The notes under the pieces are model-generated. The model saw nothing but the letters and a program-made list of their open reading frames with translations. It ran no database searches and was not told the DNA's origin. From Verrucomicrobiota bacterium (GTDB lineage: Bacteria; Verrucomicrobiota; Verrucomicrobiia; Limisphaerales; J093), in the NCBI GenBank assembly GCA_022710935.1, contig JAKLFY010000031.1:1857-65856 (forward strand): a DNA stretch of 64,000 bases. The letters run 5' to 3'. The position numbers and the translations under genes are program-made. Position 1 is the stretch's first letter. Every line of letters starts with the position of its first letter. Shown one piece after another: positions 26,810 to 45,845 of this stretch.

Positions 26810-29800
26810 CTACTGCCGCACCAAGATCGTACGGTACCACAGGAAGGGTGCCGTGTTGGTAATGGTCAGGAGCCCGCTGTGTGGTCCACCCGGCAGGTCG
26901 GTCCAAATCGCATCCGGTCTAAGAGACTCGGAGTACTGAACAAAGGTGTCGTACCCGGGCCGTTGCACGACAAAGAGATGCACCGTTGGCGACGAGCCGC
27001 TGTAAACGAGGCTCATAACGATCGGCGGTCCCATGACTTCGATGCCCACAGATGCCCAGTCATTGGATGGATTCACATCGGTCGACGGCGTGTCGACATT
27101 GCCCATGGCCATGAGGCTGCCATACACGTTCGGGACAACCGTGATGGTCACTGTGGCGCTCGTGCCTCCCCCCAAGTCGCCCAACTCGCAGACCACGACG
27201 CCGCCGGCCAGGGTGCATTCGCCCTGACTCGAAGTCGCGCTGACAAACGTCGTGTTTGCCGGCACAGGACTCTTGACCGTGACGCCCCGGGCGACCGAAA
27301 GACGCGTGTTCGCCACCCTGAACTCGATCGCAAGGTTGCCGCCGCCGGCGACCGGGTTTGGCACGGCACGCCCGAGAATCAGGACGTCCACCGGCGCAAC
27401 GACCGTGATCTTGAAGAACTGCGGAGGACTGGTGTCTACGCCGCCATTGGCGGTGCCGCCATCGTCTTGGAGGAGTACGGCCACGGTCGCTTCACCCACA
27501 GCGGTGTCGTGGGCTTGATAGGTGAGAGTGCCATCGGCACTGACTGCGGGCTGGACGGCAAAGATGCCTTCGTAGTCATTGTTCACGACAAAGTGGATCT
27601 GCTGTGTCGCCTCGTTCGCCGGCCCTGCGCGTATGCCGGTCGCCCAGCCGGCTATCGACTGCGGCCCGGCGCCCTGGGTTGAGACCTGGTTGGGTCCCTT
27701 CGTGAAGGCTGGCGCGTCGTTCACCGGCAACACCGTGATGGTGAACGTTTGCGGAGCGCTGGTGTCCACACCGCCGTTCGCCGTCCCGCCGTCGTCTTTC
27801 AAGAGCACGGTGACGGTCGCACTCCCGTGCGCATCAGGCGCCGGGGTGAAGCTCAGAGTTCCATCCGCAGAGAGCGTTGGCTCGGCAAAGAACAGGCTGC
27901 TGTTGTCGTTGGTGACCTCGAACGTCAGAACCTGAGCCGATTCCTCGGGAGGTCCGGACTGAATGTCAGTCGCCCAAGCTGCAAGGCTCACCGTGCCACT
28001 GTCTTCATTGACTGTCTGGTCAGGACCCTTGGTGAATGTGGGCTGGTGGTTAGCGGGGCTCAAGAGATTGAAGGTTGCCGTGACCGACTTTGCGGCGTCC
28101 ATTGTCACGACACGTTCGGTCTCTCCGGCGCCATCGCCAGTCCAGCCGTCGAACGTCGAGTTGGGGTCCGCTTGAGCCGTAAGCGTCACCAGCGCGCCGG
28201 TCGGAAACTCCGCGGAGCAAGTGCCGCCGCAGTCAATGCCCGCGGGCTGACTTGTCACGCGGCCAGTCCCGCTGCCGTTCTTTTCTACGATGAGGGCTGC
28301 GTTTGCTGTGGCGGAGAAGGTGATCTGCAGCCACTGGGAGAACTCGGACGTATTGCCCAGCGGATCGGTGGCCGTTGCCGTCACGTAGCGGTCCAAGTAA
28401 TACAATGAACCGGGATACGGTCTTGACAGCTCGAACTCCGCAACCCCGGTTGAATCCGTCTCGGTTGCGAGGGATTCAAAACTCTCTTCGCCTTGGCCAT
28501 ACCCCGAAGGGTCTCCGCTTTCTCCCACGAAAAACTCGATTGTGAATGCGGTGCCGGGGGCACTATTGAGAGTCCCCCCGATGGTAAGATTCGTATTCGA
28601 GTCCCAGGACCTTGTCAGAACTGGATAGTTCTGCAGCAGATTGGCACCGACGTCGCTGTCATTCGCATCGTTGGCGGTCGGTCCTGCGCCGCCCAGGTCA
28701 ATTCCCAACTCACGGTTGTTTGCGAGGCTGTTGCCTCGCATCGCGTTCCGGTCCCCCGAGTAAATGCGCACGCCAGTTCCACGATTGTCAAATATCTTGT
28801 TGGCGGTGAATCTGTTCTGGCTTGCTGAGTTGGTTACAACAATGCCCGAGCCTTCGTTTCCACCAGGATCGAACCCGCCATAGTATCCCCCAATGTCGTT
28901 CCCCACGACGACGTTGTTGGTTGAGAGCACACCGTCGATCACCACACCATGAGCTGCGTTATATGCGATGATGTTCCCCGTGTTGTAATTGGTCGAGCCA
29001 ATGGTGTTGTGCGAAGAGTCAAGAAGGTAAACTCCAACAGTGTTCCCCAGCTCCCACGTCTCGGTGTCCCCGATCGTATATCGGCTTATGCTGTTGCCTC
29101 TTGCTCCCTCGAGGAAGATGCCGTGGTGGTGGCTGGAAATGAGGCCGCCAGCCGAGAACGACCCGCCCACCGTGTTCGTTTGCGCCCGCGAGAGAAGAAT
29201 CCCGGCCCCCCAGTTGCCCAGCGGTCGCTCACCGTTCGCGTCTGTGCCAATCAGATTCGCCTCGATCGAGTTGAAGGCAACACCATCACCGCGAAGCACC
29301 ACACCATCCCCGAAGTTCCCGGCAATGATGTTCACGTCACTCCACGTCTCACCTCCGACCCGATTGTATTGGGCCTGTTGCGCGGCCGAAGCCTGTATAC
29401 AAATGCCACCCGACGAGTTTCCCAACCCCTCGAAGCCGGGACTCTCGGCATCCGTCGAACCAGTTGCATCCGTTCCAATATAGTTGCCGACGATGGTGCA
29501 CCGACTCGAGTTCTCCAAGGCCACACCGTACCCCAAATTGGCGGAAATGACATTTGGCGGATAGCCGTAACGGCCGATGGTCACCAGGCTGGTGTCTTTG
29601 ACGCGAATGCCATCGCCCTGGTTGCCCGCCGCCTCGGTACCGGTGAGGTCCGTCCCAATATAGTTCCCGTAGATTTCACCCTGGCTGCTTCCCCAAGGGC
29701 TCGGCAATACCAGGATCCCGTGCCGAGGCGATCTACTGAGCACGAGCCCTGCGACCCTGAAAGAGAGACACTCGAAAGTCAGCAGGCCAGCGTTCTCATC

Positions 29801-30115
29801 CAAGTAGTCCAGTCCACTTCCGTCGAGTTCCACGATCGGGTCGCCTGCGTAACCCGGCTGAGATGTTCCGTCGACCGTCACATTCGCCTTGATGTTCGGC
29901 AGGCGCGTGAACAGACGGATGGATTGCGGCCCAGAGTCGATATGGAACAGTATCCGCGGGTACTCCATGTCTGCGTTCGCATCGAGAATGGCCTGCCGCA
30001 GGGAACCGGGGCCCTCGTCATCGGTGGTTGTCACCGTGAAGACAGCAGGGTGGACGCGGGCGACGGCAAGGCACAGGCTAATGGCGATGAAGAGCGAACA
30101 GATCGGAGTCTTCAT
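26810..30115 (-). CDS. large secreted adhesin-like protein with parallel beta-helix repeats, an InlB-B-like repeat, two cadherin/Ig-like repeats and a DUF11-like repeat
   Basis: The signal is MKTPICSLFIAISLCLAVA, from the ATG at 30115. A GPGSLRQAILDAN (CSLREA-like) motif is followed by many beta-helix turns. Next are GSGTGRVTSQPAGIDCGGTC and two ~100-aa repeats ending TITVLPVNDAP and KITVVAP. An alternative in-frame ATG lies at 30187. Confidence 0.75.
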   Translation of the reverse strand: MKTPICSLFIAISLCLAVARVHPAVFTVTTTDDEGPGSLRQAILDANADMEYPRILFHIDSGPQSIRLFTRLPNIKANVTVDGTSQPGYAGDPIVELDGSGLDYLDENAGLLTFECLSFRVAGLVLSRSPRHGILVLPSPWGSSQGEIYGNYIGTDLTGTEAAGNQGDGIRVKDTSLVTIGRYGYPPNVISANLGYGVALENSSRCTIVGNYIGTDATGSTDAESPGFEGLGNSSGGICIQASAAQQAQYNRVGGETWSDVNIIAGNFGDGVVLRGDGVAFNSIEANLIGTDANGERPLGNWGAGILLSRAQTNTVGGSFSAGGLISSHHHGIFLEGARGNSISRYTIGDTETWELGNTVGVYLLDSSHNTIGSTNYNTGNIIAYNAAHGVVIDGVLSTNNVVVGNDIGGYYGGFDPGGNEGSGIVVTNSASQNRFTANKIFDNRGTGVRIYSGDRNAMRGNSLANNRELGIDLGGAGPTANDANDSDVGANLLQNYPVLTRSWDSNTNLTIGGTLNSAPGTAFTIEFFVGESGDPSGYGQGEESFESLATETDSTGVAEFELSRPYPGSLYYLDRYVTATATDPLGNTSEFSQWLQITFSATANAALIVEKNGSGTGRVTSQPAGIDCGGTCSAEFPTGALVTLTAQADPNSTFDGWTGDGAGETERVVTMDAAKSVTATFNLLSPANHQPTFTKGPDQTVNEDSGTVSLAAWATDIQSGPPEESAQVLTFEVTNDNSSLFFAEPTLSADGTLSFTPAPDAHGSATVTVLLKDDGGTANGGVDTSAPQTFTITVLPVNDAPAFTKGPNQVSTQGAGPQSIAGWATGIRAGPANEATQQIHFVVNNDYEGIFAVQPAVSADGTLTYQAHDTAVGEATVAVLLQDDGGTANGGVDTSPPQFFKITVVAPVDVLILGRAVPNPVAGGGNLAIEFRVANTRLSVARGVTVKSPVPANTTFVSATSSQGECTLAGGVVVCELGDLGGGTSATVTITVVPNVYGSLMAMGNVDTPSTDVNPSNDWASVGIEVMGPPIVMSLVYSGSSPTVHLFVVQRPGYDTFVQYSESLRPDAIWTDLPGGPHSGLLTITNTAPFLWYRTILVRQ

Positions 30116-30159
30116 GGAGATCTGCTTTCTGGTTTGGTTCTTCCGGGCAAGGTCCAAAC

Positions 30160-30234
30160 CCCGTGTGAGCTGTGTCGTGACACGCATACTTGCTCCTTGA
30201 GTGGAATGGCAAAGCGCCGACAGTTGTGACAGAG
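30160..30234 (-). promoter_or_regulatory. conserved upstream leader core, copy 1
   Basis: The block CTGTGTnGTGACACGCATnCT...GGAATGGCAAAGCG...TTGTGACAGAG is shared with 39520-39589 and 40808-40883. Each copy lies upstream of a minus-strand surface-protein ORF. Confidence 0.6.
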
Positions 30235-30251
30235 GTCGCGGACCAAAGGCA

Positions 30252-30368
30252 ATGGAAGAGGACGCGTCCAAGAGTGGCGGCAGCCCCGCGTTTCCGAACA
30301 CGCAGTGGACGGTCATCGTCGACGCCGTTTCCAGCAGACCGGAGCCGGTGCAGGAGGCGCCCACCTAG
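30252..30368 (+). pseudogene. 5' fragment (38 codons) of an ECF sigma factor gene, paralogous to 41660-42406
   Basis: It translates to MEEDASKSGGSPAFPNTQWTVIVDAVSSRPEPVQEAPT*. The intact gene reads MMEDDASKNGGSSAFPNTQWTVIVDAVSSHPERVREAL. The DNA is near-identical over about 90 nt and then diverges into a TAG. Confidence 0.8.
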
Positions 30369-30464: not shown

Positions 30465-33400
30465 TCAACGCGACCGCCGTACGGCGCGGAAGTACCGCGC
30501 AGCGCTCGCCCCGAGGGTCACATCGAAGGTCTGGTACAGGTCGGGTTGGGTTGTTCGCAGTTCCTCCTGCCACGGGGCCGCGGGATCCAGCGAGGCGCAC
30601 GAGTGCACTTCGCAGTCCCAGCCTGGCCGCCCATAGAGCACTAACGCCGGAGACTGATCGGCGTCCAGCACAGCTTCGAGCAGCGGCTCTTCGCTGATGA
30701 TCACAACGCGCCCGGATTGTGGGGCGAAGTTGGCGACTTGATTCCCGTCGGTCGTCAACCCAACGGTATTGTCCAAGAGCAGGTCGACGAAGGCCGAGGA
30801 CTCGTTCGAGACAGCAGTAAAGTACAGCCAGGCAACCTGCTGCGTGCCGATCAGCCACTGGTTAGCGCACATTCTCATGCTCAACGATTGCAGCGAGTCG
30901 GTCAGCACCGTGATCGAGCTTTCACAGATCCCCGGAGTGACCGGCTCGAGTGTGAAGTCCGTCAGGCGGTCAGTGGGAGCCTCGACGGTCATCGAGAGGC
31001 TGGTGAGGGGCACTGTCGAGATGAGGTTCACCGGCACGCGTCCCCGGTTGCCCACCTCGAGCACCAACCGACCGAGGCTGGGCACCACACACTCGCCCAC
31101 GACAATCGTGAACACCCTGGCATCCATCAGATTCGGCCTGCCGGTATCTGCCACCCAGACCGTGATCGCATATGACCGGCTCGCCTGCGAACAGGCCGGG
31201 TTCCAGCGGAAAACACCGTTGGTCGGGTCGACAACCACGCCTGACGGTGCGCCCGCTCCGAGGCTGAATCGCCACTCACCCGAGGGCGTGCCCAGAACCG
31301 CGTTTGTGAACGTGACCGTTGCGCCCGGAAGCGTCGTTGAATCGAGAACCGATGACAGCACCGGCGCGGTGGCCGGAACGGTCGTTACAGCCTGCGGCGC
31401 GGCGGGAAGCGGCTCTTCCTGGCCGACGTTGTCGCGGGCGAGGCTGGTGAAGGCGTAGGTGTGGCCGGGTTCGCCGCGGAACCAGGCGCTGGTGGCGGTG
31501 GTCTGCGACAGCCAGAGGAACCGGTTCGTCCCGTTCTCCGTCACGCAGATGTCGAAGCTGGCGAGGCCGGAGCCGCCGGGATCGTCCTGGCCGGACCATT
31601 GCACGAGGAAGGTTGGGCCGGCCTCGGCCGGCAACGGCGCCACGGCGCTGACGGGCGCGGCGGCATCGAGGGTGTTGAAGACGAGCGGCGTGTCAATGGG
31701 GTCGTTGTAGTCAAACACGATGCGGGCGCGGTTCTCGACGCGCGTGCCGCTGGCCGCGCCGGAGTTCGCGCGGACAATGTAGCTGATGCTCCCGTCGCCG
31801 CGGCCGGTCCCGTCGTTGGGGTAGAGAAGACCGATCAACGGGTCTTCGGGATACCAGCCCGTGTTCGGGTCAATCGCGGTCAAGGTCAACGTGAGGAGGC
31901 GCGTGGGCATGTCGAGGTGCGCGTCCACCTCCACGAGGATGGCGTTGCTGGGCAGCAGTGCCAGCGCGGAAGCGCCATCGCCGAGCGGGATGAGGGTCTG
32001 GTTGGTGACGATGAAGGCCAGACTCTTCTGGTAGTGGTTGAGCCCAGGGGGAATGGCCAGGACCTGGTTGCCAAAGGCGATCTCGGTCAACTCGAACGTG
32101 CTGAGGTCGAGGTTCGGGTCGAGCATGTCTGTGACAACAACATGCTGCGCCGGGGCGGTGGCGCTGGGCTGGTTCTCGAACCGGATTTGATAGGCCAACG
32201 TGCCGTCCGCCGGCAGGTAGGCCGCACTGCCATATCCCGACGGCCCGAGTTTGTCGTTTGGGTCAGACGAGCGGGCAAGCGCGAAGGACCAGCAGCCGTT
32301 GATGGGTGTCGGTGTGGGGTCGGGGTTGAGGATGTCAAAGTAATCCTTGAGGTCCTTCAGAATGTCCCAGGCATCCTTCAGTTTCTCAGGTCGGTCGTGA
32401 ACATTGAAGAATTTGAAAAAGAGATCGAATGCCGCACGCCAGCTATTGTCACTTAAGAAGTCGGCGTTCCTTGCCCTTTCGTCAGCCGCAGCGTTGCGCT
32501 TCTCGTCGTCGTCGAAATTACGGATCATTTCCTCATGGCTTCGATGGAATCTGAGGTAATGTCGAAGCCAATCGCCAAATGGATCACTGTCTTCCCTCAA
32601 TCCACTCGGATCAGTGAGCATTACCGGACGGCTTCGCGTATACGCATACAGGTTGAGGCCGCCGAGTATATGCACAGGATCAGTCGTGTGAAATCTGCCA
32701 AGTGAGGGGGAATAGTCTCTCGCCCGCATGAACTCCAACCCGTTCCCCTCGTTCATCACGCCAAATTCGCCGACGAACTCGAACGGGTTCGGAAGCGTCT
32801 CGGCCTTCGTGAGCGACAGGCCGAACGGGTCGTAGGCGTAGGCGTTGGCCACCGCGCCGGACGGGCCGGTCAGTTCGCTGGTGTGGCCGATGGCGGAGAA
32901 GGTGTAGAAAGCCGGGTCGCCCGCGGCATCGCTGCGCGCGAGCAGACCGAAGCCGTGGTCGTAGCGAGCAATCAGGTTGCCGCCGCCGTCGTATTCGGCA
33001 GCCACGTTGCCTAGGCCGGTCGGGTCAATCACGTAGCGCGTAGTCTGGCCGTTGTGCGTTGTGGCGATGCGATTGCCAAAGGCGTCGTAGGCGTACGTCC
33101 AGGTGTCCGTGGGTGTGGTGACGCCGATGAGGCGATCCTCGATGTCGTATGTGTTGGTTGATGGTTGAGAGTTGATGGTTGAGAAGGTCAGGTTGCCGTC
33201 GAGGTCGTAAAGCAGCGTTTCGTCGCCAACCGAGGTGTATTGATTCAATGTGTTCGCGGCGTAATCAGTCGCGACGCCGTTGTCGGTGACCTGTGTGCGG
33301 TTGCCCGCGGAATCGTAGGCGTAGTTCACCACGCGGCCGTTTGGGTAGGTGACGCTGGTCAACTGGCCGAGCGAGTCGTGGCCGTAGGTTTCCGTGCCGG

Positions 33401-36400
33401 CGAGCGTGGTCATCGAGTCGCGGCGACCGGAGGCGTCGTAGGTGTAAACAAAGCTGGAGAGGACGGAGTTGTCCGCCTTGCGGTTGACGAGGGACACGAC
33501 CTGGCCGGCGGCGTTGTACTCGTACGTGGTGAAAACGCCGTTCCCGAGCGTCTTGCGGCTGAGCCGGCCGGCGGGGTCGTAGTCGTAGTCCACAACCAAC
33601 TGGCCGAGGCCGTTGGTCATGCGGTCAAGCCGGCCCAGTTCATCGTAGAGATACGCGGTGACTTGGCCATCCTGGTCCGCGCGGCGGGTACGGCGTCCGG
33701 CGGGGTCGTAATCGAAGGTGAAGAACCTGCCGCCGGGATATTGGATGCGGGTAAGGCGGTCGGTGAGTGGATCGTACTCCATTTCGATGGTTTGCTGGGA
33801 ACCAAGCAAACCGTCGAAATACGTGGCTGAACGCAAGTTCCCGGCGGAATCGTAGGCGTATGTGAAGTCGGTAATGCCAGGCGTGGTGGCGTAGTCCTTG
33901 GACGTGAGCTGACCAGCAGAATTGTAGGTGTAGGTGATAACGCCGCCTCGGCGGTTGGTGGACGTGATGACGCTGCCGTGCGCGTCGTAGGCGAACCGCT
34001 CCGCGGTGGCATCGGCGTAGGTGATGGCGGTGAGGTTGCCGCGATCGTCGTAGGCGTATTTGAGGTCGTTCCCGCGCGCGTCGCGGACCTGGGCGAGGCG
34101 GTTGAAGTTCGGCTCGTAAGTGAAGCTGTTGTTCTGGCGCAGCGGGTCTTCGATGCCGCTGAGGTTGCCAAAGCCGTCATAGCCGTAGCGGTAACGTTCG
34201 CCGCCCGGGCCGACAAGCTGGGTGAGTTGATCGAGGTCGTCGTAGGTGAAGTTGACGATCCGGCCCTCGCCGTCGCGCACCTGGGCCAGTTGCCCGCCGA
34301 GGCCGTAAAGGAGTTGCGTGGCGCGGCCCGTGGCATCGGTGACGGTGACCATGCCGGCGGAATCGTATGCGTAGTTGACTTGTTGCGCGCCGCCGCAGCA
34401 GTTCTGCGAGGTCTGGATCAGGCGGCCTTGCGCGTCGTAAACGAACGAGTCCTGGCTAAGATCGGGGTGGGTGACGTTGGCGAGCGCGTGGAGTCGCTGC
34501 GGAATGTCGTCAGTGTGATAAGCGTAAGTCGTAACGCGATTGCCGGGTGCGGTGACACGGATGAGGTGTTCGCCCGAGGCGTCGTATTCGTAGGTAGTGA
34601 CGCGGTCGTCGGCTGCGCCCGGGCCGAGCGGGTCGGTGATTTGCGCGAGGCGGCCTGATCCGTTGTATTGGAGGAGGAATTGTCTGCCGCTGGAGTGCGT
34701 GAGCGAAGTCAACTGCGAGCCGGTGTAGCCGCAGGTGATGCGATTGCCGTTGGGGTCTTCGACATATTCAAGGCGGCCGATGGGGCTGTTCGTGGCGAAC
34801 ACCCAGGCCGTCTTGTCGGCCTCGATGAGCCGGAACGTGCTGTTGGTAAGCAACATCACACCGGTGTCGCTGCCCGTGGCCACATACTGCCCGTAGCTGC
34901 TCCGGCCAAAGAAACGCTCGGCGCCACCCGGGCCGCGGACGGTCACGCCGTAATAGCTGATGAGCGTCTGCGCGTGGATCTCCCAATTGTGCGACCAACC
35001 GCGCCCGAGCGCGCCGAGGCGGTATCGCGAGAGGATGGGCTGGCCATACGTGCGGCGGAAAACGAGCGGGAAACCGGGCGAAGGCGCGGAAGCGTCCACA
35101 GCAGCAGCGAGGGTGCGGACAGGATTGAGCGCGGCGGCGGCTTGCAAGACCTCGAAATTGAACAACGGCGCCGGGTCGTTGGTCATCTGGCCCACCTTGG
35201 CCAGGTGGTTCAGGTTGTCGCCCATCATGACGACGTAGTTGGCCCAAAGCGGGCCGGCGGCTTTCACGAGGTTGGCCCAGACGGCGTCCCAGCCGGCGGC
35301 ATCGGCAGTCTCGGGCCGCGAGCGCGCTCGGAGATCTTCCCAGGGGACGCTGAAAAGCCGTTCCGTGCCGTTGGTCCAGTGGCCGCTTCCGAGGATACTT
35401 CGGTGGCCGTGGCTCGGGAAGAGGACTGCCCCTGGCACGCCGGGAGCCGGCGAAGGCCACTCGACAATCGTGGTATCGTCAGCGGTAACGGTCCCCACGT
35501 TGAACTGAACCGGGTCCTGCCATTCCCCATGAAAGCCGGCGAAGTAGAACGGGACGCGCCCGCGCTCGCCCGGTTGGAGCCAGCCGGGAGTGGCGCTCGA
35601 TCCGACCGCGATGCCCTGAACCGAGTTGAGGGGGCGCGCTACGTTGAAAATGTAAGTCGGCGGGGCGGACAGCCTCCCGCCACCGCCTCCCCCACCCCCA
35701 CCCCCGCCTCCCACTGGGGGCGTCGGTGCGTAGCCCGGAATGGCCCTCCAGTTGACTCGGTGCGCGGTGACTGTGCTGTTTTCGTAGGCCGTCACCTTGA
35801 GCAATGGGACGGGCATGGGGCGAGTGCCCGTATTCGCGTATTCGACGTAGAGGGTCTGGCCGCCGCCGGGGCTCAGGGCGGTCCCCACGAGACGGGCTTC
35901 GAATTTCGCCTCGCCGCCGGACACAACGGTGAGCGCGTTGGTCAGGACTCGGGTTGCGGCACCCTTGGTGACCCACACGCTGTACGTGCCCGCGCTCATT
36001 GATCCGGTGTTGAAAAAGAGCTGGAGTTGCGTGGCACCCACAAGCTCGGTGCGGTTTGGAACGTGCCGAGTGCCCGACGTTTTCACCAACTCCACCGTCA
36101 TGGTTTCATCGAAACCCACACCCGACAACGCGGCGGAGGGGAGGGTCTTGTCCAAGACCGACACCCACCAGTGAGAGCTTTCGTCGCCGGGGATGACGGT
36201 CGGGCTGATGCCATTCACATAGAACGGCGCGGTTTCGGCGCTGAGGCTGTAGGTGCCGTCGCCGAGTTGCTCGGCGGAAACGAGCACGTAGTACGCGGCT
36301 CCACCGGGGACTCCCGTTAGCTCAATGGTCTGATTTGGTGACAGCTCGCGCGCGCTGTAATCGCTGTCTTGCCTGCTCGGGATGGAGGCGACGCTGGCGA

Positions 36401-39392
36401 AGAGATGGTTGACGCCAGACGAGCTCGTGAGGTTGAGGCGCAGGCTTTCGCCAGCCGGAACCTGGATGGCGTAGTAGTGCAGGCGGCTCGCCCCGGTGAA
36501 CGTGCCGGAAATGGGGCCTCCGTTCGCTGTGAAGGTCCGGTAAGCGATGGTCAACGGATCGGACGCGGCCGTGTTGTTGGCTTCTTCACTCTCGATGGCC
36601 GCATTGCCGAGGTCCGCGCGGACGATCACATGGTATCTGCCTGGCAAAAGGCCGGGCGCGTTGAAGGTCGTCGAAGCCAAATAGACCTCGTTCGTGGCGA
36701 GTCCGCCTGGATGGTTGACGGTGGCGACACGAACATCCGTGATATTCCAAAACGGGTCGGCCGAGACATACACAGCATCGGTCCAACTGCCAAGGAGGGC
36801 CGTCCCGAGCACGTTGCGTCCCTCCCACGACACACTGACGGCGTCGCCCGCCCAGAATTCCTGCATGTCGCAAACCACGTTGGTGACCTCCAGGTCCACG
36901 GGAACAAGGTTGAAGGTGACCGATCGCGAATTGATGATGTCGAGCGAATTGCCGGCGAGGTCCGCGACGTTCGTACTGAATGCCACGCGATAGAGCCCGA
37001 CGGCGGTTTGCGATGGGAACGTGACCCGCCAACGATTGAGGCCAACCTCCTGAATGCCGCTGACGGACACCGCCTGCCCGAGGGTGTTGGTGAGCCGCAC
37101 ATTGGCGGGAATCAAGGTGGCGCTGTCCATCTGTTCACTGAACCAGACGTCCACCGAGGTGATAGTGCCCGCGATGTCGCCGGGCGGAGTGTGTTGCGTG
37201 ACGCGCGGCGGTACGGTGTCGAGGATGAGGGTAAAGCTGAAGGCATCGTCCGTCTCACCGGGAATACCGTTGGCGTTTTGGTCGAGTTGATAGCCATCGG
37301 CGTCAAGCAAAGTCGGCAGCAGGGTGAAGTGATATGCGCCTTGGTCGGTCTGTGGAGCGAAACCAAAGCGATAGAGTCGGTCGCCAACTTCGGAGATCCC
37401 AGTGGGGACAATCTCCCCCAGCGGTCCGACGATGACCAGTTTGTCCATCGTGAACGAGTTCATGGCGATGGCTTGGTTGAAGTGGATAGCGATGCTATCA
37501 CGGAAGGAGCGGGGGAGCGGGAATACATAGTCGTTGGTGGGGTACACAAGCACTCGCCCCGGCAATGAGAAGCGGGCATGAGTGCGTGGTGCGCCCGGAT
37601 ACAAATGGACCGTGCCCGCACCGCCCGGGGTAGTGGCATTGAGGCCGCCCGAGGCCGCGATTTTCGCGAGACCAAACCCCGCGGTGTCCGTGGCATACAC
37701 CGCAATGCGCCCACCCCCGCCACCACCATAGCCGGAGAGGGCACTGTTACCCCCATCTGCCCGGATGATCCCTCCCCCCGTCAAACCGCCCACGCGGACA
37801 TAGATCGCACCGCCGGCCCCGCCGCTCCCATCCCGGTCGGCTCCGTTGGCCAGCAATTGTCCCTCCAAATCCAATGCCGCCGCCGTTAACCGAACGAGCC
37901 CACCCCCTGGACCGTATCCGCTGCCACTGCCCCAGTCCTCCGGATCGGCATAATCCCCATAGACGGGTAGCACGGTGGGGCTGGGTGCGATGGCCATGCC
38001 GCCCAGACCCCCATGACTCCCACCACTATAAAACGCCGAAGCCGGGGCCGGCACATTCCCCACCGTCCGCCCCGCCACATACCCCCGCCCACTCACGTCA
38101 ATCCGGCTCATCGCATCCACCACCACCGCCCCCGTGACGTTGATCTCCAGCTTGTGCGTGTTCGTCTCCGTGCAGGGCAAATGCGTCAACACTGAGTAAT
38201 TGCTCAGCGTCAGCGCCGGCGCCACCAACCGCTCGGTCGTAAACGTGCCGCCGCCAATCGTCACCGGCGCCGTCGAGGTCACCGAGCCACTGAATATCAT
38301 CGAGCTGTTCGTCCCCAACACCAGCGGCGTCGTTCCTCCCAGCAGCGCATCCTCCAATTCCAAACGTGCTCCTCCACTCACCTCCACCCCGCCCGCAAAC
38401 TCGACCACCATCCCCGGATGCTCCGGCTTCACCTGCGTCTGTGCCCCCCGAATCACCACCCCATCCGCAATCACGAAGGTGTTCGTCCCCGCCACCCCCA
38501 ACGGCGTCCAACCGTTGCCCCCACTCCCCGCGTCAATCATCAACGTGCCCACCGCCTCGTCGGTGTCCCGCACATACACCGTGCCCGCACCGCCCGGAAA
38601 GCGCGGACTTGCCGCCCCCGCCGCGCTCAAGTTCCCAAGGTTGAATTGAGAATGCTCCGCGGCATACACTGCAATCCGACCGCCGCCTCCCCCCCCGTAG
38701 TTGTTCGAGTAGACGCTCGTCCCACCTTTGGCCTGCATCGTGCCGTTGCCTGTCAAAGCGTTCACCGCGACACGAATCCCGCCCCCCGCTCCGCCGCTGC
38801 CATCGGCATTGCTGCCGTTGGCCAGGAGTTGTCCCTGTAGTTCCAGCGAACCCGCAACAAGACGAATCAACCCACCGCCCGACACGTACCCGCTTCCGCT
38901 GCCCCATTCCTGCGGGTCGGCGTAGGTCCCATACACAGCCAAAGGCGTTGAACTACCTGCAATCCAAGCACCCAACCCGCCATAGCTGCCCCCGCTGTGA
39001 AACGCCGACGCCGGCGCCGGCACATTCCCCACCGTCCGCCCCGCCAGGTACCCCTTCCCGCTCACGTCGATGCGGCTGTCGGCTGAAATGGCGATCTGGT
39101 CGCTGATCGTCAGATCGAGTTTGTGTGTTTCGCTGACGGTGCAGGGCGAGTGGGTGAGGACAGCGCCGTTGGTCAGGAGCAGCGAATTGAAGAGGTGCAG
39201 CCCGTCGACGGTCACCGTGACGGGGCCGTCGATCACGATGTCTTGGTCATCGTAAGTCGTGTCAGTTTCGGAAATGGTGATGTTGCTGGTGAATGTGGCG
39301 GCGGTGGCCAAGTTCACCGCGAAACCAACTGCGAAACATGCCAGGCGAAGCAGAACCAGCCTGCCTCTTCTTGCCGTACGATGATGGGTCAT
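30465..39392 (-). CDS. giant secreted RHS/YD-repeat protein (2975 aa) with duplicated Gly-rich beta-helix modules and an atypical long post-core tail
   Basis: The ATG at 39392 is preceded by GGAGGAGGG. The signal is LVLLRLACFAVGFAVNLATA. Two paralogous beta-helix modules come first, then Ig-like, CARDB-like and PPC-like segments and a G12 tract. The RHS region starts near GRGWSHNW, carries dozens of YD repeats (YAYDSAGN, YTYDASGR, ...) and ends with the core motif PVMLTDPSGL at 32598-32612. Confidence 0.9.
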   Translation of the reverse strand: MTHHRTARRGRLVLLRLACFAVGFAVNLATAATFTSNITISETDTTYDDQDIVIDGPVTVTVDGLHLFNSLLLTNGAVLTHSPCTVSETHKLDLTISDQIAISADSRIDVSGKGYLAGRTVGNVPAPASAFHSGGSYGGLGAWIAGSSTPLAVYGTYADPQEWGSGSGYVSGGGLIRLVAGSLELQGQLLANGSNADGSGGAGGGIRVAVNALTGNGTMQAKGGTSVYSNNYGGGGGGRIAVYAAEHSQFNLGNLSAAGAASPRFPGGAGTVYVRDTDEAVGTLMIDAGSGGNGWTPLGVAGTNTFVIADGVVIRGAQTQVKPEHPGMVVEFAGGVEVSGGARLELEDALLGGTTPLVLGTNSSMIFSGSVTSTAPVTIGGGTFTTERLVAPALTLSNYSVLTHLPCTETNTHKLEINVTGAVVVDAMSRIDVSGRGYVAGRTVGNVPAPASAFYSGGSHGGLGGMAIAPSPTVLPVYGDYADPEDWGSGSGYGPGGGLVRLTAAALDLEGQLLANGADRDGSGGAGGAIYVRVGGLTGGGIIRADGGNSALSGYGGGGGGRIAVYATDTAGFGLAKIAASGGLNATTPGGAGTVHLYPGAPRTHARFSLPGRVLVYPTNDYVFPLPRSFRDSIAIHFNQAIAMNSFTMDKLVIVGPLGEIVPTGISEVGDRLYRFGFAPQTDQGAYHFTLLPTLLDADGYQLDQNANGIPGETDDAFSFTLILDTVPPRVTQHTPPGDIAGTITSVDVWFSEQMDSATLIPANVRLTNTLGQAVSVSGIQEVGLNRWRVTFPSQTAVGLYRVAFSTNVADLAGNSLDIINSRSVTFNLVPVDLEVTNVVCDMQEFWAGDAVSVSWEGRNVLGTALLGSWTDAVYVSADPFWNITDVRVATVNHPGGLATNEVYLASTTFNAPGLLPGRYHVIVRADLGNAAIESEEANNTAASDPLTIAYRTFTANGGPISGTFTGASRLHYYAIQVPAGESLRLNLTSSSGVNHLFASVASIPSRQDSDYSARELSPNQTIELTGVPGGAAYYVLVSAEQLGDGTYSLSAETAPFYVNGISPTVIPGDESSHWWVSVLDKTLPSAALSGVGFDETMTVELVKTSGTRHVPNRTELVGATQLQLFFNTGSMSAGTYSVWVTKGAATRVLTNALTVVSGGEAKFEARLVGTALSPGGGQTLYVEYANTGTRPMPVPLLKVTAYENSTVTAHRVNWRAIPGYAPTPPVGGGGGGGGGGGGRLSAPPTYIFNVARPLNSVQGIAVGSSATPGWLQPGERGRVPFYFAGFHGEWQDPVQFNVGTVTADDTTIVEWPSPAPGVPGAVLFPSHGHRSILGSGHWTNGTERLFSVPWEDLRARSRPETADAAGWDAVWANLVKAAGPLWANYVVMMGDNLNHLAKVGQMTNDPAPLFNFEVLQAAAALNPVRTLAAAVDASAPSPGFPLVFRRTYGQPILSRYRLGALGRGWSHNWEIHAQTLISYYGVTVRGPGGAERFFGRSSYGQYVATGSDTGVMLLTNSTFRLIEADKTAWVFATNSPIGRLEYVEDPNGNRITCGYTGSQLTSLTHSSGRQFLLQYNGSGRLAQITDPLGPGAADDRVTTYEYDASGEHLIRVTAPGNRVTTYAYHTDDIPQRLHALANVTHPDLSQDSFVYDAQGRLIQTSQNCCGGAQQVNYAYDSAGMVTVTDATGRATQLLYGLGGQLAQVRDGEGRIVNFTYDDLDQLTQLVGPGGERYRYGYDGFGNLSGIEDPLRQNNSFTYEPNFNRLAQVRDARGNDLKYAYDDRGNLTAITYADATAERFAYDAHGSVITSTNRRGGVITYTYNSAGQLTSKDYATTPGITDFTYAYDSAGNLRSATYFDGLLGSQQTIEMEYDPLTDRLTRIQYPGGRFFTFDYDPAGRRTRRADQDGQVTAYLYDELGRLDRMTNGLGQLVVDYDYDPAGRLSRKTLGNGVFTTYEYNAAGQVVSLVNRKADNSVLSSFVYTYDASGRRDSMTTLAGTETYGHDSLGQLTSVTYPNGRVVNYAYDSAGNRTQVTDNGVATDYAANTLNQYTSVGDETLLYDLDGNLTFSTINSQPSTNTYDIEDRLIGVTTPTDTWTYAYDAFGNRIATTHNGQTTRYVIDPTGLGNVAAEYDGGGNLIARYDHGFGLLARSDAAGDPAFYTFSAIGHTSELTGPSGAVANAYAYDPFGLSLTKAETLPNPFEFVGEFGVMNEGNGLEFMRARDYSPSLGRFHTTDPVHILGGLNLYAYTRSRPVMLTDPSGLREDSDPFGDWLRHYLRFHRSHEEMIRNFDDDEKRNAAADERARNADFLSDNSWRAAFDLFFKFFNVHDRPEKLKDAWDILKDLKDYFDILNPDPTPTPINGCWSFALARSSDPNDKLGPSGYGSAAYLPADGTLAYQIRFENQPSATAPAQHVVVTDMLDPNLDLSTFELTEIAFGNQVLAIPPGLNHYQKSLAFIVTNQTLIPLGDGASALALLPSNAILVEVDAHLDMPTRLLTLTLTAIDPNTGWYPEDPLIGLLYPNDGTGRGDGSISYIVRANSGAASGTRVENRARIVFDYNDPIDTPLVFNTLDAAAPVSAVAPLPAEAGPTFLVQWSGQDDPGGSGLASFDICVTENGTNRFLWLSQTTATSAWFRGEPGHTYAFTSLARDNVGQEEPLPAAPQAVTTVPATAPVLSSVLDSTTLPGATVTFTNAVLGTPSGEWRFSLGAGAPSGVVVDPTNGVFRWNPACSQASRSYAITVWVADTGRPNLMDARVFTIVVGECVVPSLGRLVLEVGNRGRVPVNLISTVPLTSLSMTVEAPTDRLTDFTLEPVTPGICESSITVLTDSLQSLSMRMCANQWLIGTQQVAWLYFTAVSNESSAFVDLLLDNTVGLTTDGNQVANFAPQSGRVVIISEEPLLEAVLDADQSPALVLYGRPGWDCEVHSCASLDPAAPWQEELRTTQPDLYQTFDVTLGASAARYFRAVRRSR

Positions 39393-39697
39393 TTCCCTCC
39401 TCCTTCTCCGGCGTGTGCCCCGGCCGGTTTGTTTGCAGGTGACACGGGGATCTGGGGTGGTGCGCATTCGGTCAGCCCTTGCCCGGGTTTTCGCCCAAAT
39501 GCGTTGAGGTCCAACTCCCGACCGCGCTGTGTTGTGACACGCATGCTCTCCAACGCTGAAATGGCAAAGCGGGGAGGATTGTGACAGAGGCGCAGGTCCA
39601 GGACATTCGTCGTTGTCGCCTGAGCTCCGACCGAGACGTCCGTGGTCTGGGCCGTCTCAAACGACAGCTTGAGTTTCAGGCGCGGGATGTCTAACGA
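39393..39697 (-). promoter_or_regulatory. duplicated divergent intergenic/leader region, copy 2
   Basis: It aligns with 40693-40900 (leader) and 41560-41647 (sigma-proximal part ending TCTAACG). It abuts the truncated paralog at 39691-39697. Confidence 0.65.
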
Positions 39698-40365
39698 ATC
39701 AGCCCCCCGCCTGGAGCCCCTCCTGCATAGGGTCCGCTGCCGCTTCCCCATTCGTTAGGTTTCGCGTAATCCCCGTAGACCGCGTTGGCCGGCTGATCCG
39801 AAGACCAGGAAGCCCCCAATCCCCCATAGCTGGCGCCGCTATTATATTGTGCCGCCCCGTTGGTCGTGTTGCCTGTGGTCCGCCCCGCGATGTACCCTTT
39901 CCCACTCACGTCAATCCGGCTGTCAGTCGAAACCACGATGGCGTTGGTGACGGTCAGGTCCAGCTTGTGCGTGCTCGTCTCCGTGCATGGCGAGTGCGTG
40001 AGCACCGCGCCATCGGTGAGGAGCAGGGAATTGAAGGCGTGCGGGCCGTCCATCGCCACCGTCACGCCCGCGCCGGAGATGACGAGATCCAGACCGTCAT
40101 AGCTGGTGTTCGACTCGCTGAGGGTCAGGCTGCTCGTGATCCAGGTTTGGGCGGAGGCGGGGAGCGTGGCCGCGAAGAGGCACACAAGGCACAAAACGGG
40201 CCAAGCAGCGAACCGCGGATGGCGCGGATGGTCTCCAGCCTGAATCCGCGGCCATCCGGGAAATCCGTGGTTGCCTGGCGTTCTGGCCGCGGACCGGAAT
40301 GTCCGCGCTCCTTCAAGGGCTTCGTGCGGATTCGTGTTCATAGGGGGTTCTCGTTGGGCGGTCAT
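39691..40365 (-). pseudogene. truncated paralog (224 aa) of the RHS protein N-terminal beta-helix module
   Basis: TWITSSLTLSESNTSYDGLDLVISG...THSPCTETSTHKLDLTV...SRIDVSGKGYIAGRT...GGGLIR* parallels RHS residues TFTSNITISETDTTYDDQDIVIDG...GGGLIRLVAG. The stop codon is created at the junction with leader copy 2. Confidence 0.6.
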
Positions 40366-42626: not shown

Positions 42627-45600
42627 ATGCCAGATCAAACCCAGAACAGGAGAATCCCCTACTTCGGAGACTTCGTCTTGTTTGACGAGGTCGGCCGCGG
42701 CGGGATGGGCGTGGTCTATGACGCTCAACAATCGAGCCTGGACCGGCGGGTGGCCCTCAAAATCCTCCACCCGGATCTGTCTGCGACCGACGCCGCCCGC
42801 CAGCGGCTCCGGCTCGAAGCGGAAGCCGCGGCGCGACTCGAACACCCGCACATTCTCCCCATCTACGAAGTGGGCGAACACGACGGCCGTCCTTACCTCG
42901 CGATGCAGTTCGTCGAAGGCGAGAGTCTGGCCCAGCGCATCGCGCGGCTCGGGTCGGAGATCCCAGAAAAGGAGGCGGCAACCCTCCTGGCGAAGGTCGC
43001 CCGGGCTGTCCAACACGCGCATGAACGCGGCGTGCTGCACCGGGATCTCAAGCCGGGAAACATCCTTCTCGACCAGGCCGGCCAGCCGCATCTGATCGAC
43101 TTCGGCTTGGCCCGGTGCGTCGGCCAGGATTCAGGCCTGACCCGGACAGGGGCGTTTCTGGGCACACCCGCTTATGCGTCGCCCGAACAGGCGGCTGGCC
43201 AGACCCAGGCCGTCACCACCGCAACAGACATCTACAGTCTCGGCGCCATTCTGTATGCCCTGCTCACAGGTCAGCCGCCCTTTGTCGGCAAGTCCGCCGC
43301 CGAGACAATCGACAACGTCAGATCCGCTGATCCCGTCCGCCCGCGATCGATCCGGCCATCGCTCGCGCGCGATCTCGAGACGATTTGTCTGAAATGCATC
43401 GAGAAGGAGCCCCGGCGCCGCTACGGCTCGGCTCTCGCGTTGGCGGAGGACCTCGAACGCTTCGTTGAAGGCAGGCCGATCCTTGCCCGACCGGTCAAAC
43501 CACTGGAACGGCTCTGGATGTGGACGCGCCGAAACCCGGTCCATGCCGCGCTGGGCTTGATGGCATTCCTGGTGGTACTCCTGTCTTTGGCCGGGCTCAT
43601 TCAACGGCAACACGCCCGAGCCAGGGAAATCATGCATGTCCGGCAGAGCGAACTGCTCGGTCAAGTCCAGATCACGCGCTTGACGCCGCATCAGGCTGGG
43701 TGGTCGCAACGTGCCTGGACCCAAGCCGTCGAAGCCGCCGCAATTCCGACGGCGATGCGTTCGGATGACGTGCGCAATCAAGCGGCGGCCCTTCTGGCCG
43801 GACTCGACGCACACCAGATAGGGGAGTGGGCGAATTTCAGCGCGTCCAGTGTCCTCTTCGATCGGGAAGGCAAGCGCATCCTGATCGGGTGTGTGGACGA
43901 CCGCACACGACTGCTGGAGCTCGCCGGCGAAAACATGCAGACGAGTCCCTTGACCAATTCGGGGCCAATGGCATTCGGAGAGAATGGCGCGCCTCTCCAA
44001 CTCCTGTTCGATGCCTCAAGCCGCTCGCTCCATGTTGTTGACGTCCTGACCGGGCGACCGATGCGGGAATGGGCTGTGCCGGCTTCGATTGGCGCGGACC
44101 GGGCCGCATCGAACAGCCCGGTCGATGGGCGCCCGCTTCTCGCCTTCACACCCGATGGATCGTGCGCCGCCGGCGTGTTCGAGGGATCGGATGGTCGCCA
44201 ACACGTTGCCTCTTTTCTGCCCGGTGCCGTTCGGTCGCTGCTGGGCCTTGGAGCATCGGTGTCCGCGGTCACCATCTCTCCGGATGGGAGCCTGGCGGCG
44301 GCCGGGGAGTCGAGAGGAAAAGTGCACGTGTGGTCGACCCACGACGCCAGCCGCATCGCTGAGTTTTCAGCGAGCCGAGTCGAGATTCTCTCCCTGGCGC
44401 TCAGGCGGGTCGCGCGGCATCGCGATTCTCCCGAGGCAAGCGCGAGCGGAACCTGGCTCGTGGCGATTGGCGACGCGGGAGGCACGGTGACGATTTGGGA
44501 TGTCGAGAGCCAGACAGCGACGGCTCACTGCGTTGGCGGTCACTACCACATCAATGCGGTCGCGTTCAGCCCGGATGGAGCGACACTCGCTTCAGGCGGA
44601 CGCGGTCCGGTGAAACTGTGGGATGTGGGCACCGGCCGGTTGCTGCTGGAATGTCAGTGGGGCGACTACATCACGGACCTCGCATTTTCACCTGACGGCG
44701 CGTGTCTGGCCATGAGCGCGGAGAACAAGAACCCGCCCTACCCGGCCGGCCTCGCCATCTGGCGTCTGGAACCCGGACGCGGGATCCAGACGCTGCGCGG
44801 CCTCTCGGGTCAGGTGTCGAAGGTGTGTTTTTCGCCGGATGGACGGAGGTGCGCGGCCTTGTCGCACCGATGGGAGGTGGGGGTGTGGGATGTGGCCGAG
44901 GACCGACTGCTGCGGATCTTCGAGGCGCCGGTCGGCCAAATCGCCGACAACGCGTCGCTGGCCTGGAGCCCGGATGGCGAACATCTCGCCTTTGCAGGCT
45001 GGCAGGCTGCTCGATTGTGGGATATCGCGTCCGGTCAGACGCTGCGGCGTTGGGACGAACGCCAGTTGCCCCCGGGCCTCTGCGACACCCTCGCCTTTCC
45101 AGACGAAGAACATCTCTTTCTCTTCAGGGTCGAGACGCGCGACGGCAAACACCCTCCGCTGAAATCCGTTGCGGATCCAAAAGGTCACCCCCGCGTCTGC
45201 CGTCTGCGCGAGATCCTGAGTTCGGACCATCCCACTCTCATCGCGGAGATCACTGACTTCAGCGACCATGTCAAAGAGGTCGAGGCGCCGCCCGACGGAC
45301 GTTGCTTTGTCGTGGAGGGCAAGTCTGTGTTCGGGGATGAGAACTCGGCGATCATGAAGTGCTTCGATGGACGCACGGGCAGGGAGTTGTGGTCGCGCGA
45401 CCTGCGGCGCGAGGAATGTGGGGTGTTGGCGATCGACGCCGCCGGGAAGCTTCTTTCCTTCCCGCAGGATCCGCTGGGTGAAGCATCGCTTGTTGAGTTG
45501 CAGACGGGTCGTGCGCTCGAGGTCCTGGACTTTTTCCCCTGGGGGATCCGGGCCGAGCCCCGCCTGTATGCCGGAAACGCATTCGACCGTGACCGAGACA

Positions 45601-45845
45601 TCCGCCTGTTCGACGCTCCAGGCCAGGCCCCTTTGCTCACGCTCGCCGTTGACCCCTGCGCCGCCAGCGGCGTCCGCTTCAATGCCGAGGGAACCCGGCT
45701 GGCCTGGGGCAACGCGGATGGGACGGTTACTGTTTGCCACCTCGATGAAATGGAGAACCGCCTGCGCGCTGCTAGCGCGCATTTCTCACCAGGTCTTGTA
45801 CAGCGCGAAGTCGATGTCATCGAGAGAGACAGCCATGCGCGCTAG
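42627..45845 (+). CDS. Ser/Thr protein kinase with one TM helix and extracytoplasmic WD40 beta-propeller repeats
   Basis: Hanks motifs GRGGMGVVY, VALK, HRDLKPGNILL, DFGLA and GTPAYASPE. The TM helix is ALGLMAFLVVLLSLAGLI. Many WD-like repeats follow (GTVTIWD, PVKLWD, EVGVWD, AARLWD). Confidence 0.9.
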   Translation: MPDQTQNRRIPYFGDFVLFDEVGRGGMGVVYDAQQSSLDRRVALKILHPDLSATDAARQRLRLEAEAAARLEHPHILPIYEVGEHDGRPYLAMQFVEGESLAQRIARLGSEIPEKEAATLLAKVARAVQHAHERGVLHRDLKPGNILLDQAGQPHLIDFGLARCVGQDSGLTRTGAFLGTPAYASPEQAAGQTQAVTTATDIYSLGAILYALLTGQPPFVGKSAAETIDNVRSADPVRPRSIRPSLARDLETICLKCIEKEPRRRYGSALALAEDLERFVEGRPILARPVKPLERLWMWTRRNPVHAALGLMAFLVVLLSLAGLIQRQHARAREIMHVRQSELLGQVQITRLTPHQAGWSQRAWTQAVEAAAIPTAMRSDDVRNQAAALLAGLDAHQIGEWANFSASSVLFDREGKRILIGCVDDRTRLLELAGENMQTSPLTNSGPMAFGENGAPLQLLFDASSRSLHVVDVLTGRPMREWAVPASIGADRAASNSPVDGRPLLAFTPDGSCAAGVFEGSDGRQHVASFLPGAVRSLLGLGASVSAVTISPDGSLAAAGESRGKVHVWSTHDASRIAEFSASRVEILSLALRRVARHRDSPEASASGTWLVAIGDAGGTVTIWDVESQTATAHCVGGHYHINAVAFSPDGATLASGGRGPVKLWDVGTGRLLLECQWGDYITDLAFSPDGACLAMSAENKNPPYPAGLAIWRLEPGRGIQTLRGLSGQVSKVCFSPDGRRCAALSHRWEVGVWDVAEDRLLRIFEAPVGQIADNASLAWSPDGEHLAFAGWQAARLWDIASGQTLRRWDERQLPPGLCDTLAFPDEEHLFLFRVETRDGKHPPLKSVADPKGHPRVCRLREILSSDHPTLIAEITDFSDHVKEVEAPPDGRCFVVEGKSVFGDENSAIMKCFDGRTGRELWSRDLRREECGVLAIDAAGKLLSFPQDPLGEASLVELQTGRALEVLDFFPWGIRAEPRLYAGNAFDRDRDIRLFDAPGQAPLLTLAVDPCAASGVRFNAEGTRLAWGNADGTVTVCHLDEMENRLRAASAHFSPGLVQREVDVIERDSHAR

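Follow-up and report, generated by a model that had tools for sequence, protein, structure and literature searches.

An internal low-GC segment of a Verrucomicrobiota RHS surface protein is a probable replaceable cassette between two conserved handles

An RHS surface protein gene and its low-GC island

The 64,000-nucleotide stretch of Verrucomicrobiota contig JAKLFY010000031.1 analyzed here (the window) encodes on its minus strand, at 30465..39467, a predicted secreted multidomain surface protein of 3000 amino acids (aa), delineated by its open reading frame (ORF) and translation and by Pfam and NCBIfam matches. Our subject is a segment of this gene that is low in guanine plus cytosine (GC) and lies between its RHS core and a DUF7619 domain. 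From N to C terminus, the protein consists of a signal peptide/anchor, two beta-helix-like repeats, Big_5 and CARDB domains, a DUF6531 plug, an RHS/YD shell, the variable segment (hereafter the cassette), DUF7619, an FN3-like domain, a He_PIG Ig domain, and a cohesin-like C terminus; the FN3-like, cohesin-like, and signal peptide/anchor labels were assigned by eye from sequence alone.

The RHS/YD-repeat shell (aa 1455-2290; 32598..35105, minus strand) was placed using profiles, AlphaFold2, and Foldseek and runs from the DUF6531 plug (aa 1455-1515) through the RHS repeats to an Rhs-associated core that ends at DPSGL. RHS_repeat (PF05593) matches in 10 stretches (E = 7.7e-65), TIGR01643 matches at E = 5e-52, and the Rhs-associated core profile TIGR03696 scores 63 bits at aa 2212-2290 (cut-off 32.5), with the PxxxxDPxGL core ending present as RPVMLTDPSGL. 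In an AlphaFold2 model of aa 1441-2640, built from a 51-sequence alignment, the predicted local distance difference test (pLDDT) score of the shell is mostly >90. Foldseek matches the modeled shell to solved type VI secretion system (T6SS) Rhs cocoons, a bacterial teneurin-like protein, animal teneurins, and TcB-TcC, with E = 1e-54 to 1e-30; the Rhs cocoons 8QJA, 7Q97, and 8H8B come at E = 1e-54 to 1e-44 and the teneurin-like 9IFO at E = 1e-41. On the basis of its repeats, its core domain, and its predicted cocoon fold with plug, we assign the protein to the RHS cocoon proteins.

The chain continues for 710 residues beyond DPSGL, 602 of which form conserved non-toxin domains, and no stop codon separates the RHS core from DUF7619. 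The latter domain (~aa 2402-2601; 31665..32264, minus strand), defined by PF24595 (62.9 and 68 bits; cut-off 27) and AlphaFold2, is predicted to be an all-beta sandwich with a pLDDT of ~90. DUF7619 is counted among the predicted CnaA-like intramolecular isopeptide domains, which have a Lys near the domain start; in a reference domain that begins at 653-655, the triad is Lys 657, Asp 695, and Asn 764 (PMC12617251). In our protein, K2406 (in DPNDK) and D2447 (in VTD) are found at the expected spacing from the domain start and are candidates for the Lys and Asp of such a triad. Far upstream, in the N-terminal part of the protein, there is a run of 12 glycines (PPVGGGGGGGGGGGGRL) at ~aa 1260-1275 (window 35600-35700), whose homopolymeric codon tract could be slippage-prone.

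The original prediction, made from the letters of the window, had described a sharp low-GC island at 32335-32720, and this description holds. GC is 0.500 there, against a mean of 0.649 (sd 0.035) for all 386-bp windows in the 64 kb (z = -4.3). Nowhere in the 64 kb is GC lower: 0.008% of the 386-bp windows are equally low, each overlapping this same site, and the second-lowest site elsewhere has a GC of 0.528. Of two local values given at the time, 47% for 32521-32580 was reproduced (46.7%), while 38% for 32401-32460 was recomputed as 40%. The quoted peptide was also right, with DPSGL at aa 2286-2290 of the minus-strand ORF (window 32598-32612). The GC and codon-usage profile that had been proposed as a check shows the deviation in both measures. 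GC at third codon positions (GC3) falls across the island from about 0.8-0.9 to 0.47-0.62, and it is 0.60 in the 148 codons of the cassette, against 0.79 (sd 0.05, minimum 0.67) in 148-codon windows elsewhere in the gene. These within-gene windows served as the GC3 background in place of a stop-to-stop ORF scan, which was contaminated by spurious frames and 5' extensions. Since GC3 drops too, a peptide composition rich in Lys, Asp, Glu, and Phe is not by itself the cause of the low GC.

Assembly chimerism at both borders, which the original prediction had also wanted checked, was assessed using metagenome contigs of 679 to 7695 bp from anaerobic digester, activated sludge, and bioreactor samples (2016-2025). 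Contigs from 8 runs of 8 separate studies extend across one border or both and match the island without a single mismatch, the few strain differences among them all being outside it (32763, 32810-32895, and 33210), and the reading frame is unbroken through the 3000 codons of the gene. Since the contigs of eight separate studies match across the borders, the island is not an assembly chimera. Its composition is thereby confirmed as real, and its nature as a non-native, replaceable segment is supported by the comparisons that follow.

Cassette, handles, and family

Base-by-base alignment with related genes places the cassette at 32274..32717 (minus strand; aa 2251-2398; 444 bp; GC 0.523). Its first part (32598..32717), read from the sequence, comprises the final 40 RHS-core residues (DYSPSLGRFHTTDPVHILGGLNLYAYTRSRPVMLTDPSGL) and contains a bipartite aspartyl autoprotease motif, D2263-P-V-H followed after 19 residues by D2286-P-S-G-L2290, which fits the autoprotease definition of PMC13018210 (DPVH-19 residues-DPSG). 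The residues expected for autoproteolysis (R2248/R2250, D2263, and D2286) are all present. The second part (32274..32597), defined from the sequence and AlphaFold2, is a charged segment of 108 residues after DPSGL with a Pro-rich tail (NPDPTPTPINGCWSFALA). Helices are predicted at aa 2298-2324 and aa 2364-2380 and are nominal only, with a pLDDT of 23-37 for aa 2293-2401. In the earlier picture, the acquired piece was charged, apparently helical, and without a recognizable catalytic motif; in our analysis it is charged, has these two low-confidence helices, and has no Pfam match at E <= 1.

The cassette is flanked by two conserved handles, both delimited by blastn and base-by-base alignment. 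The upstream handle (32718..33047, minus strand; aa 2141-2250; GC 0.66, GC3 0.86) ends in ...NGLEFMRAR, and the downstream handle (32085..32273, minus strand; aa 2399-2461), which starts with RSSDPNDKLGPSGYG..., is the N-terminal part of DUF7619. By blastn, the DNA of the upstream handle is 85-93% identical over 315 nt to the related loci L001-L004 and L006 and 84% identical to L014, and that of the downstream handle is 87-91% identical over 180 nt to L001-L004 and L006. A 468-nt query spanning the cassette (32265-32732) had no blastn match in the related loci. Contigs from freshwater sediment, rhizosphere, and compost match the upstream handle only, and one of them diverges at 32719.

We aligned the window codon by codon with L001, L002, L003, L004, and L006, which come from five metagenome-assembled genomes (MAGs) and have flanks ~80% identical in protein. 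Between codons -150 and -46 relative to the core end, they match the window at a DNA identity of 0.87-1.00; over the final 45 core codons, the value is ~0.5. At the other border, it goes up from 0.33-0.47 to 0.89-0.98 at DPNDK. The break falls within one codon, at R2250/D2251, after GAG TTC ATG CGG GCG AGA (E F M R A R2250), and identity is regained at A2398/R2399 with CGC TCG, where R2399 opens RSSDPNDK. The variable unit therefore spans from 40 codons before the RHS core end to 3 codons before the DPNDK motif. These alignments bear out the claim of a replaceable foreign segment, since identity to five related genes is 85-93% through R2250 and near random from codon 2251. The borders predicted from composition fared unevenly: 32720 agrees within three bases with the homology breakpoint (32717/32718), while ~32330 falls short of the cassette end (32274) by ~60 nt, since the final 20 codons of the cassette, being Pro-rich, are GC-rich. 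Tip replacement in the conserved core end, as first proposed, was right about the upstream junction and missed a second, equally sharp junction with its own handle at DUF7619. At the level of sequence, we thus find a replaceable module with two fixed junctions.

How widespread this arrangement is was addressed by a scan of species-representative genomes, which returned 26 related loci in MAGs of Verrucomicrobiota, Planctomycetota, and Lentisphaerota. In 13 of the 26, an RHS core is followed by a segment of ~95-140 aa and DUF7619 (the borders of L004 and L005 were set by hand). PF05593, PF25023 (TEN_YD-shell), and PF24595 occur together in most of the best 120 protein homologues, and homologues with this architecture include proteins labelled Chloroflexi, Armatimonadetes, cyanobacteria, and Paceibacterota. 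The variable segment, first seen in 44 proteins, measures 29-213 aa from the core end to DPN[DEQ]K in 54 members (median 122, interquartile range 99-135) and may be charged and helical (as in the window), strongly hydrophobic (11/54), Gly-rich, or Pro-rich. Judging from these matches, RHS core-variable segment-DUF7619 is a family architecture, as yet undescribed, that recurs widely among Verrucomicrobiota, Planctomycetota, Chloroflexota, and other groups. The original idea of a classic C-terminal tip merely read through did not survive this survey, since what looked like a read-through is the standard architecture of a large family.

Within this family, the cassette is decoupled from its flanks. 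For all pairs among the 54 members, identity in the last 45 core residues is flat at 0.47-0.50 while that of the preceding 105 residues ranges from 30% to 100%, and identity in the first 60 DUF7619 residues climbs from 0.49 to 0.90 with upstream identity. Since downstream tracks upstream and the middle does not, the flanks travel together and the cassette separately. Five of the six closest flank relatives carry unrelated cassettes, whereas a more distant Planctomycetaceae gene, L005, has the window's class. The only detectable relatives of the window segment are the cassettes of L005 and of P0002 (locus L027), a weak homology at 29-44% identity with common motifs FGDW... and P[ED]KL.DA.D[IL]LKDL. 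In L027, the DNA of the upstream handle is 91-98% identical to the window in the bins from -150 to -46 codons, and third-position identity is ~0.3 in the cassette (saturation) against 0.8-0.93 in the handles. A different class, found in P0028 and P0044, turns up again in P0107 (56-58% identity), where it precedes a non-DUF7619 tail. This is the pattern that old cassette lineages would leave when moving between recently homogenised handles.

Several family members have features of their own. P0107 (1819 aa) has its hydrophobic P0028/P0044-class cassette followed by a tail of ~450 aa that ends in a transmembrane helix, and in P0119 (1269 aa), the RHS core, cassette, and DUF7619 are fused or adjacent to an insertion sequence-type integrase core domain. 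Degenerate core-end motifs (VDRTGG, VDVLGA, and IDRSGR), with Asp kept and Pro, Gly, or Leu lost, are present in L001, L002, L006, and others. Since the cleavage motif is part of the exchangeable unit, every cassette comes with an autoprotease site of its own, and some proteins may be uncleaved. The gene is split in L027, where a separate upstream ORF holds the Big_5 and CARDB part. In L006 (contig JAHCLO010000011.1), the frame with core end, cassette, and DUF7619 opens only ~430 nt before the match, and the same contig encodes a separate 1626-aa RHS protein, P0019. The L006 and L027 splits may be genuine or may stem from frameshifts or misassembly.

The composition of the cassette proved uniform across hosts. 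The mean over 10 genes gives a GC3 of 0.79-0.86 up to codon -45 from the core end, ~0.5 in the cassette, and 0.83-0.91 from ~15 codons past DPNDK. In 14 genes (the window plus L001-L008, L010, L011, L013, L017, and L020), cassette GC3 is 0.53 ± 0.03 at flank GC3 values of 0.52-0.89 (r = -0.11), a spread no wider than binomial sampling noise for ~150 codons. It is below the flanks in 13 of these 14 genes (Wilcoxon p = 2e-4), the exception being L010, the sole low-GC host, in which it is slightly above them. Nowhere did we see relatives sharing the window's segment with native composition, which the original prediction had said would count against it; they hold other segments, equally non-native. 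The ordinary terminal RHS tips of L022 and L024 (and less so of L014 and L021) show a similar GC3 fall from 30-45 codons before the core end, so the cassette has the compositional signature of an RHS tip. The absence of a correlation with host GC counts against host mutational drift and is compatible with a shared pool or generating process. A uniform, host-independent composition also offers a simple sequence signature for finding such modules.

Proposed exchange between the handles and its alternatives

We consider it likely that the island is a replaceable payload cassette, that is, an internal RHS tip swapped by recombination in the two handles. As the mosaic pattern suggests, exchange would occur by homologous recombination in both handles, through a double crossover or gene conversion, and would amount to an in-frame module swap that leaves no displaced tip. 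In the classical rhs model, there is one crossover with a circular intermediate that shunts the old tip downstream, and the tip is decoupled from the core and adjoins a hyperconserved region (PMC2935791). Since the window has a second handle and no shunted tips (the proposed comparison with orphan tips found none, displaced or orphan, in the window), a double crossover or gene conversion fits better than the classical single crossover. Old cassette lineages would form a circulating pool that has a base composition of its own, which would account for the foreign look of the segment in every host.

The autoprotease site of Rhs proteins, of TcC, and of the B. inaquosorum teneurin-like protein points into the shell lumen, where the chain after DPxGL is enclosed. 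By homology with these solved structures, the chain after DPSGL would start in the shell lumen, and the cassette probably sits there. The complete autoprotease motif makes it probable that the window protein is cut after L2290. In the B. inaquosorum protein, a cleaved 92-aa C-terminal domain stays in the shell, the lumen of which is ~44,000 cubic angstroms, and the C-terminal domains of the teneurin-like family average ~15 kDa, a size limited by the lumen (PMC13018210). The median cassette of 122 aa fits the cargo capacity of such shells. Since the ~600 residues of folded beta domains are too large for the lumen, the chain would have to leave the shell, probably by the Pro-rich tail threading out of it, as the C terminus does in animal teneurins. 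The payload of the window copy is predicted to be a charged helical peptide.

Searches for relatives of this payload returned little. The 108 aa after DPSGL had no match in a word-indexed search of 5.8 billion proteins, and phmmer, run exhaustively on 1.84 billion representatives, returned a single weak match, a repetitive 945-aa protein (E = 2.7e-5, seven stretches), which we judged compositional and rejected as a relative. A three-sequence profile search with the segment also found nothing, and since it did not recover P0002 either, it is insensitive for this charged sequence. In scans of the island for RNA families, terminators, and promoters, nothing meaningful was detected, with one promoter-like match. 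Mini-toxins suspected by eye in some relatives, on account of HExxH-like and phospholipase A2-like motifs, were unsupported by a Pfam scan of ten cassettes, in which the sole match was a sub-threshold peptidase (PF04450, E = 0.11) in the HExxH-containing P0074 cassette.

Several points weigh against a swapped payload. With Pfam at E <= 1, no toxin family was found for the window cassette or for 8 of the 9 others. Downstream of the gene, there is no immunity-like gene or small ORF, only a 100-bp gap to the next gene, which encodes a large surface protein. In the window, handles, cassette, and RHS core end each occur once, and there are no silent or orphan donor cassettes; the related loci likewise have no orphan or silent cassettes or extra handle copies. 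No exchange was caught in progress, since all strains in the eight metagenome studies share one cassette, although metagenome contigs drop rare variants. Simple horizontal transfer does not directly predict the very narrow, host-independent GC3 of the cassettes. The lumen position and the exit through the wall are argued from homology for a cassette modeled at a pLDDT of 23-37, and the conservation of the handles could partly reflect purifying selection and strong codon bias.

The lack of both a toxin family and an immunity gene makes a bactericidal toxin against kin seem unlikely; action on non-kin targets is possible, as is a structural filler or plug. A more far-reaching reading, which we regard as doubtful, is that of a distinct delivery or display architecture, in which a swappable payload drawn from a cross-phylum cassette pool is held in a cage and connected by a Pro-rich thread to an isopeptide-stabilised, load-bearing stalk. 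Once autoproteolysis has cut the chain at DPSGL, only the thread would retain the payload, and a pull on the stalk could draw it out. Such a protein would be a bacterial counterpart of the animal-teneurin topology, and the GC3 of 0.53 ± 0.03 would hint at a common source or mechanism.

Other explanations account for parts of the evidence. The upstream junction in the conserved core end, the low GC typical of RHS tips (PMC2935791), and the upstream handle shared by same-clade RHS genes with ordinary terminal tips (L014, 84% DNA identity) would all be expected from a one-off classic tip displacement, in which a foreign tip arrived via a single crossover in the core end and was read through by chance. 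That explanation, which we find quite unlikely, is largely refuted by the second sharp junction and the second conserved handle at DUF7619. In addition, since downstream identity follows upstream identity in 54 members, DUF7619 goes with the core and not with the insert; the architecture is family-wide, and stop codon, immunity gene, and shunted old tip are all missing. An unconstrained, fast-evolving linker that was never exchanged, and that drifted to the AT-biased mutational equilibrium of its host while gaining and losing residues by indels, is unlikely too. It would suit the pLDDT of 23-37, the near absence of database relatives, the residual homology of ~30-44% to the P0002 and L005 cassettes, and the highly variable lengths with their common Pro- or Gly-rich tails. 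However, the tract takes in 40 RHS-core residues still under protein-level constraint, and its start is sharp to one codon in every comparison. Cassette GC3 is independent of host GC3 and, in low-GC L010, is not below the flanks. Relaxed protein constraint by itself also leaves synonymous sites unchanged. Finally, cassette class is incongruent with flank relatedness, and one class is found at 56-58% identity before a different tail.

Selection at the RNA or translation level, by which rare AT-ending codons would slow ribosomes for cage folding or keep the mRNA unstructured, could explain why 13 of 14 genes, whatever their sequence, have the GC3 trough in one and the same structural place and at so uniform a level. 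We hold it to be very unlikely because ~150 codons are far above known pause clusters, the same trough is seen in terminal RHS tips with nothing after them, and the loss of homology and the decoupling from the flanks would be left unexplained; in addition, the scans of the island found no RNA family or terminator and just one promoter-like match. Localized variability, sharp borders, and uniform composition across hosts might equally suggest targeted hypermutation in place, for example by a diversity-generating retroelement. Point mutagenesis cannot yield non-homologous cassettes of 30-210 aa, though, and there is zero cassette variation in the contigs of eight metagenome studies; the window has no second cassette copy that could act as template repeat, and no search aimed at reverse transcriptases was made. 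This mechanism is exceedingly improbable. An assembly chimera or sequencing artefact at both borders, for which the abrupt change in composition is the sole argument, is refuted by the eight-study contigs with 0 island mismatches and the intact frame, and its probability is vanishingly small. Exchange of a payload cassette through the two handles is hence the reading that we retain.

Known RHS swapping concerns toxic tips, whereas here the swappable piece is internal, two-handled, without an immunity gene, and part of a secreted surface protein of environmental Verrucomicrobiota and Planctomycetota. To our knowledge, exchange of RHS tips is always confined to the extreme C terminus and always accompanied by an adjacent immunity gene. 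A limited literature check, in which the classical model with terminal tips was the only one met, found no published account of the large RHS-DUF7619 family or of an internal two-handle RHS cassette. Moreover, if the chain leaves the cage after the cassette, the protein would be a bacterial example of a topology so far seen only in animal teneurins and would bear on the origin of teneurins.

Neighboring genes and known systems

Around the RHS gene lie a surface protein gene, Ser/Thr kinase genes, and genes for ABC transporter parts, with no T6SS gene among them and no PAAR or VgrG context. Just downstream on the minus strand (26810-30364), a gene encodes a surface protein of ~1100 aa with NosD/right-handed beta-helix, InlB B-repeat-like, and isopeptide-type DUF11 (CLIPPER) domains. 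Its C-terminal ~70 residues resemble the C terminus of the RHS protein (...W..L.....FYR/WYR...), and this common C terminus may be a sorting or anchoring domain. A conserved element of ~90 nt lies on the minus strand upstream of both adjacent giant surface protein genes (39507-39590 and 30150-30235), with the shared blocks CCTCTGTCACAA..CGCTTTGCCATTyCA..GGAG..AGyATGCGTGTCACrACACAGC..TTGGACCT. Both copies hold ATG CGT GTC ACx ACA CAG (MRVTTQ). In the neighboring gene, this stretch shares the frame of the main ORF, whereas in the RHS gene it does not and lies within ORF 39389-39751; the element may be a shared promoter, a leader, or an upstream ORF. On the plus strand, a few kilobases upstream of the RHS gene, are two large genes for Ser/Thr protein kinases (42627-45845 and 46219-49278), one with a WD40 propeller. 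Such kinases are typical of Planctomycetota-Verrucomicrobiota-Chlamydiota genomes, and the pair fits the Verrucomicrobiota affiliation of the best related loci.

Among the closest known systems are the Rhs/YD-repeat polymorphic toxins with C-terminal tip displacement, as in enterobacterial rhs (Jackson et al. 2009; see also the polymorphic-toxin survey of Zhang et al. 2012). The window protein shares with them an RHS cocoon, an Rhs-associated core ending in DPxGL, a variable segment of lower GC that is decoupled from the core, and a hyperconserved adjoining core (PMC2935791). It differs in that its variable part is internal, with a second handle and ~600 residues of conserved domains after it, and in that the junction lies 40 codons before DPxGL and not at DPxGL. 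It also has an N-terminal signal-like sequence and is accompanied by no immunity gene, orphan tip array, or T6SS/PAAR/VgrG context. Put in terms of what defines a polymorphic toxin, a variable segment decoupled from a conserved core is present, with exchange suggested by the mosaic pattern, whereas a terminal toxin, a recognizable toxin domain, an adjacent immunity gene, and an orphan tip/immunity array are absent.

Bacterial teneurin-like proteins (BiTLP; 9IFO and 9PT5) resemble the window protein in being large surface proteins with adhesin-like Ig domains before the YD shell, a bipartite DPxG...DPxG autoprotease motif, and a short, variable, encapsulation-sized segment of ~90-150 aa that is often hydrophobic (Raoelijaona et al. 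2026, PMC13018210). In BiTLP, however, the short domain is the true C terminus, lies wholly in the closed shell, and comes with immunity genes (PMC13018210), whereas in the window protein the chain goes on for ~600 residues through DUF7619 and further domains. Pfam detects no NHL propeller or FN-plug family in the RHS protein, and Foldseek ranks T6SS Rhs cocoons over the teneurin-like protein as matches for its shell. Metazoan teneurins, for their part, have no aspartyl protease motif, are uncleaved, have ABD and Tox-GHH as outside domains, and show no cassette polymorphism. If the predicted exit through the shell wall holds, they (6FB3) would share with the window protein a YD shell, an internal linker, and then folded domains outside the shell, the outside domain being DUF7619 in our case.

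Lastly, the DUF7619/CLIPPER (DUF11) stalk domains are represented by the PF24595 match, in which the DPNDK lysine is at the place of the predicted isopeptide lysine, and by the DUF11 domain encoded in the neighboring gene. Such domains are described from fibrillar-adhesin stalks in PMC12617251, the text of which does not mention RHS or teneurins. In the window protein, by comparison, DUF7619 is tied to an RHS cage, and its N-terminal part would act as a recombination handle.

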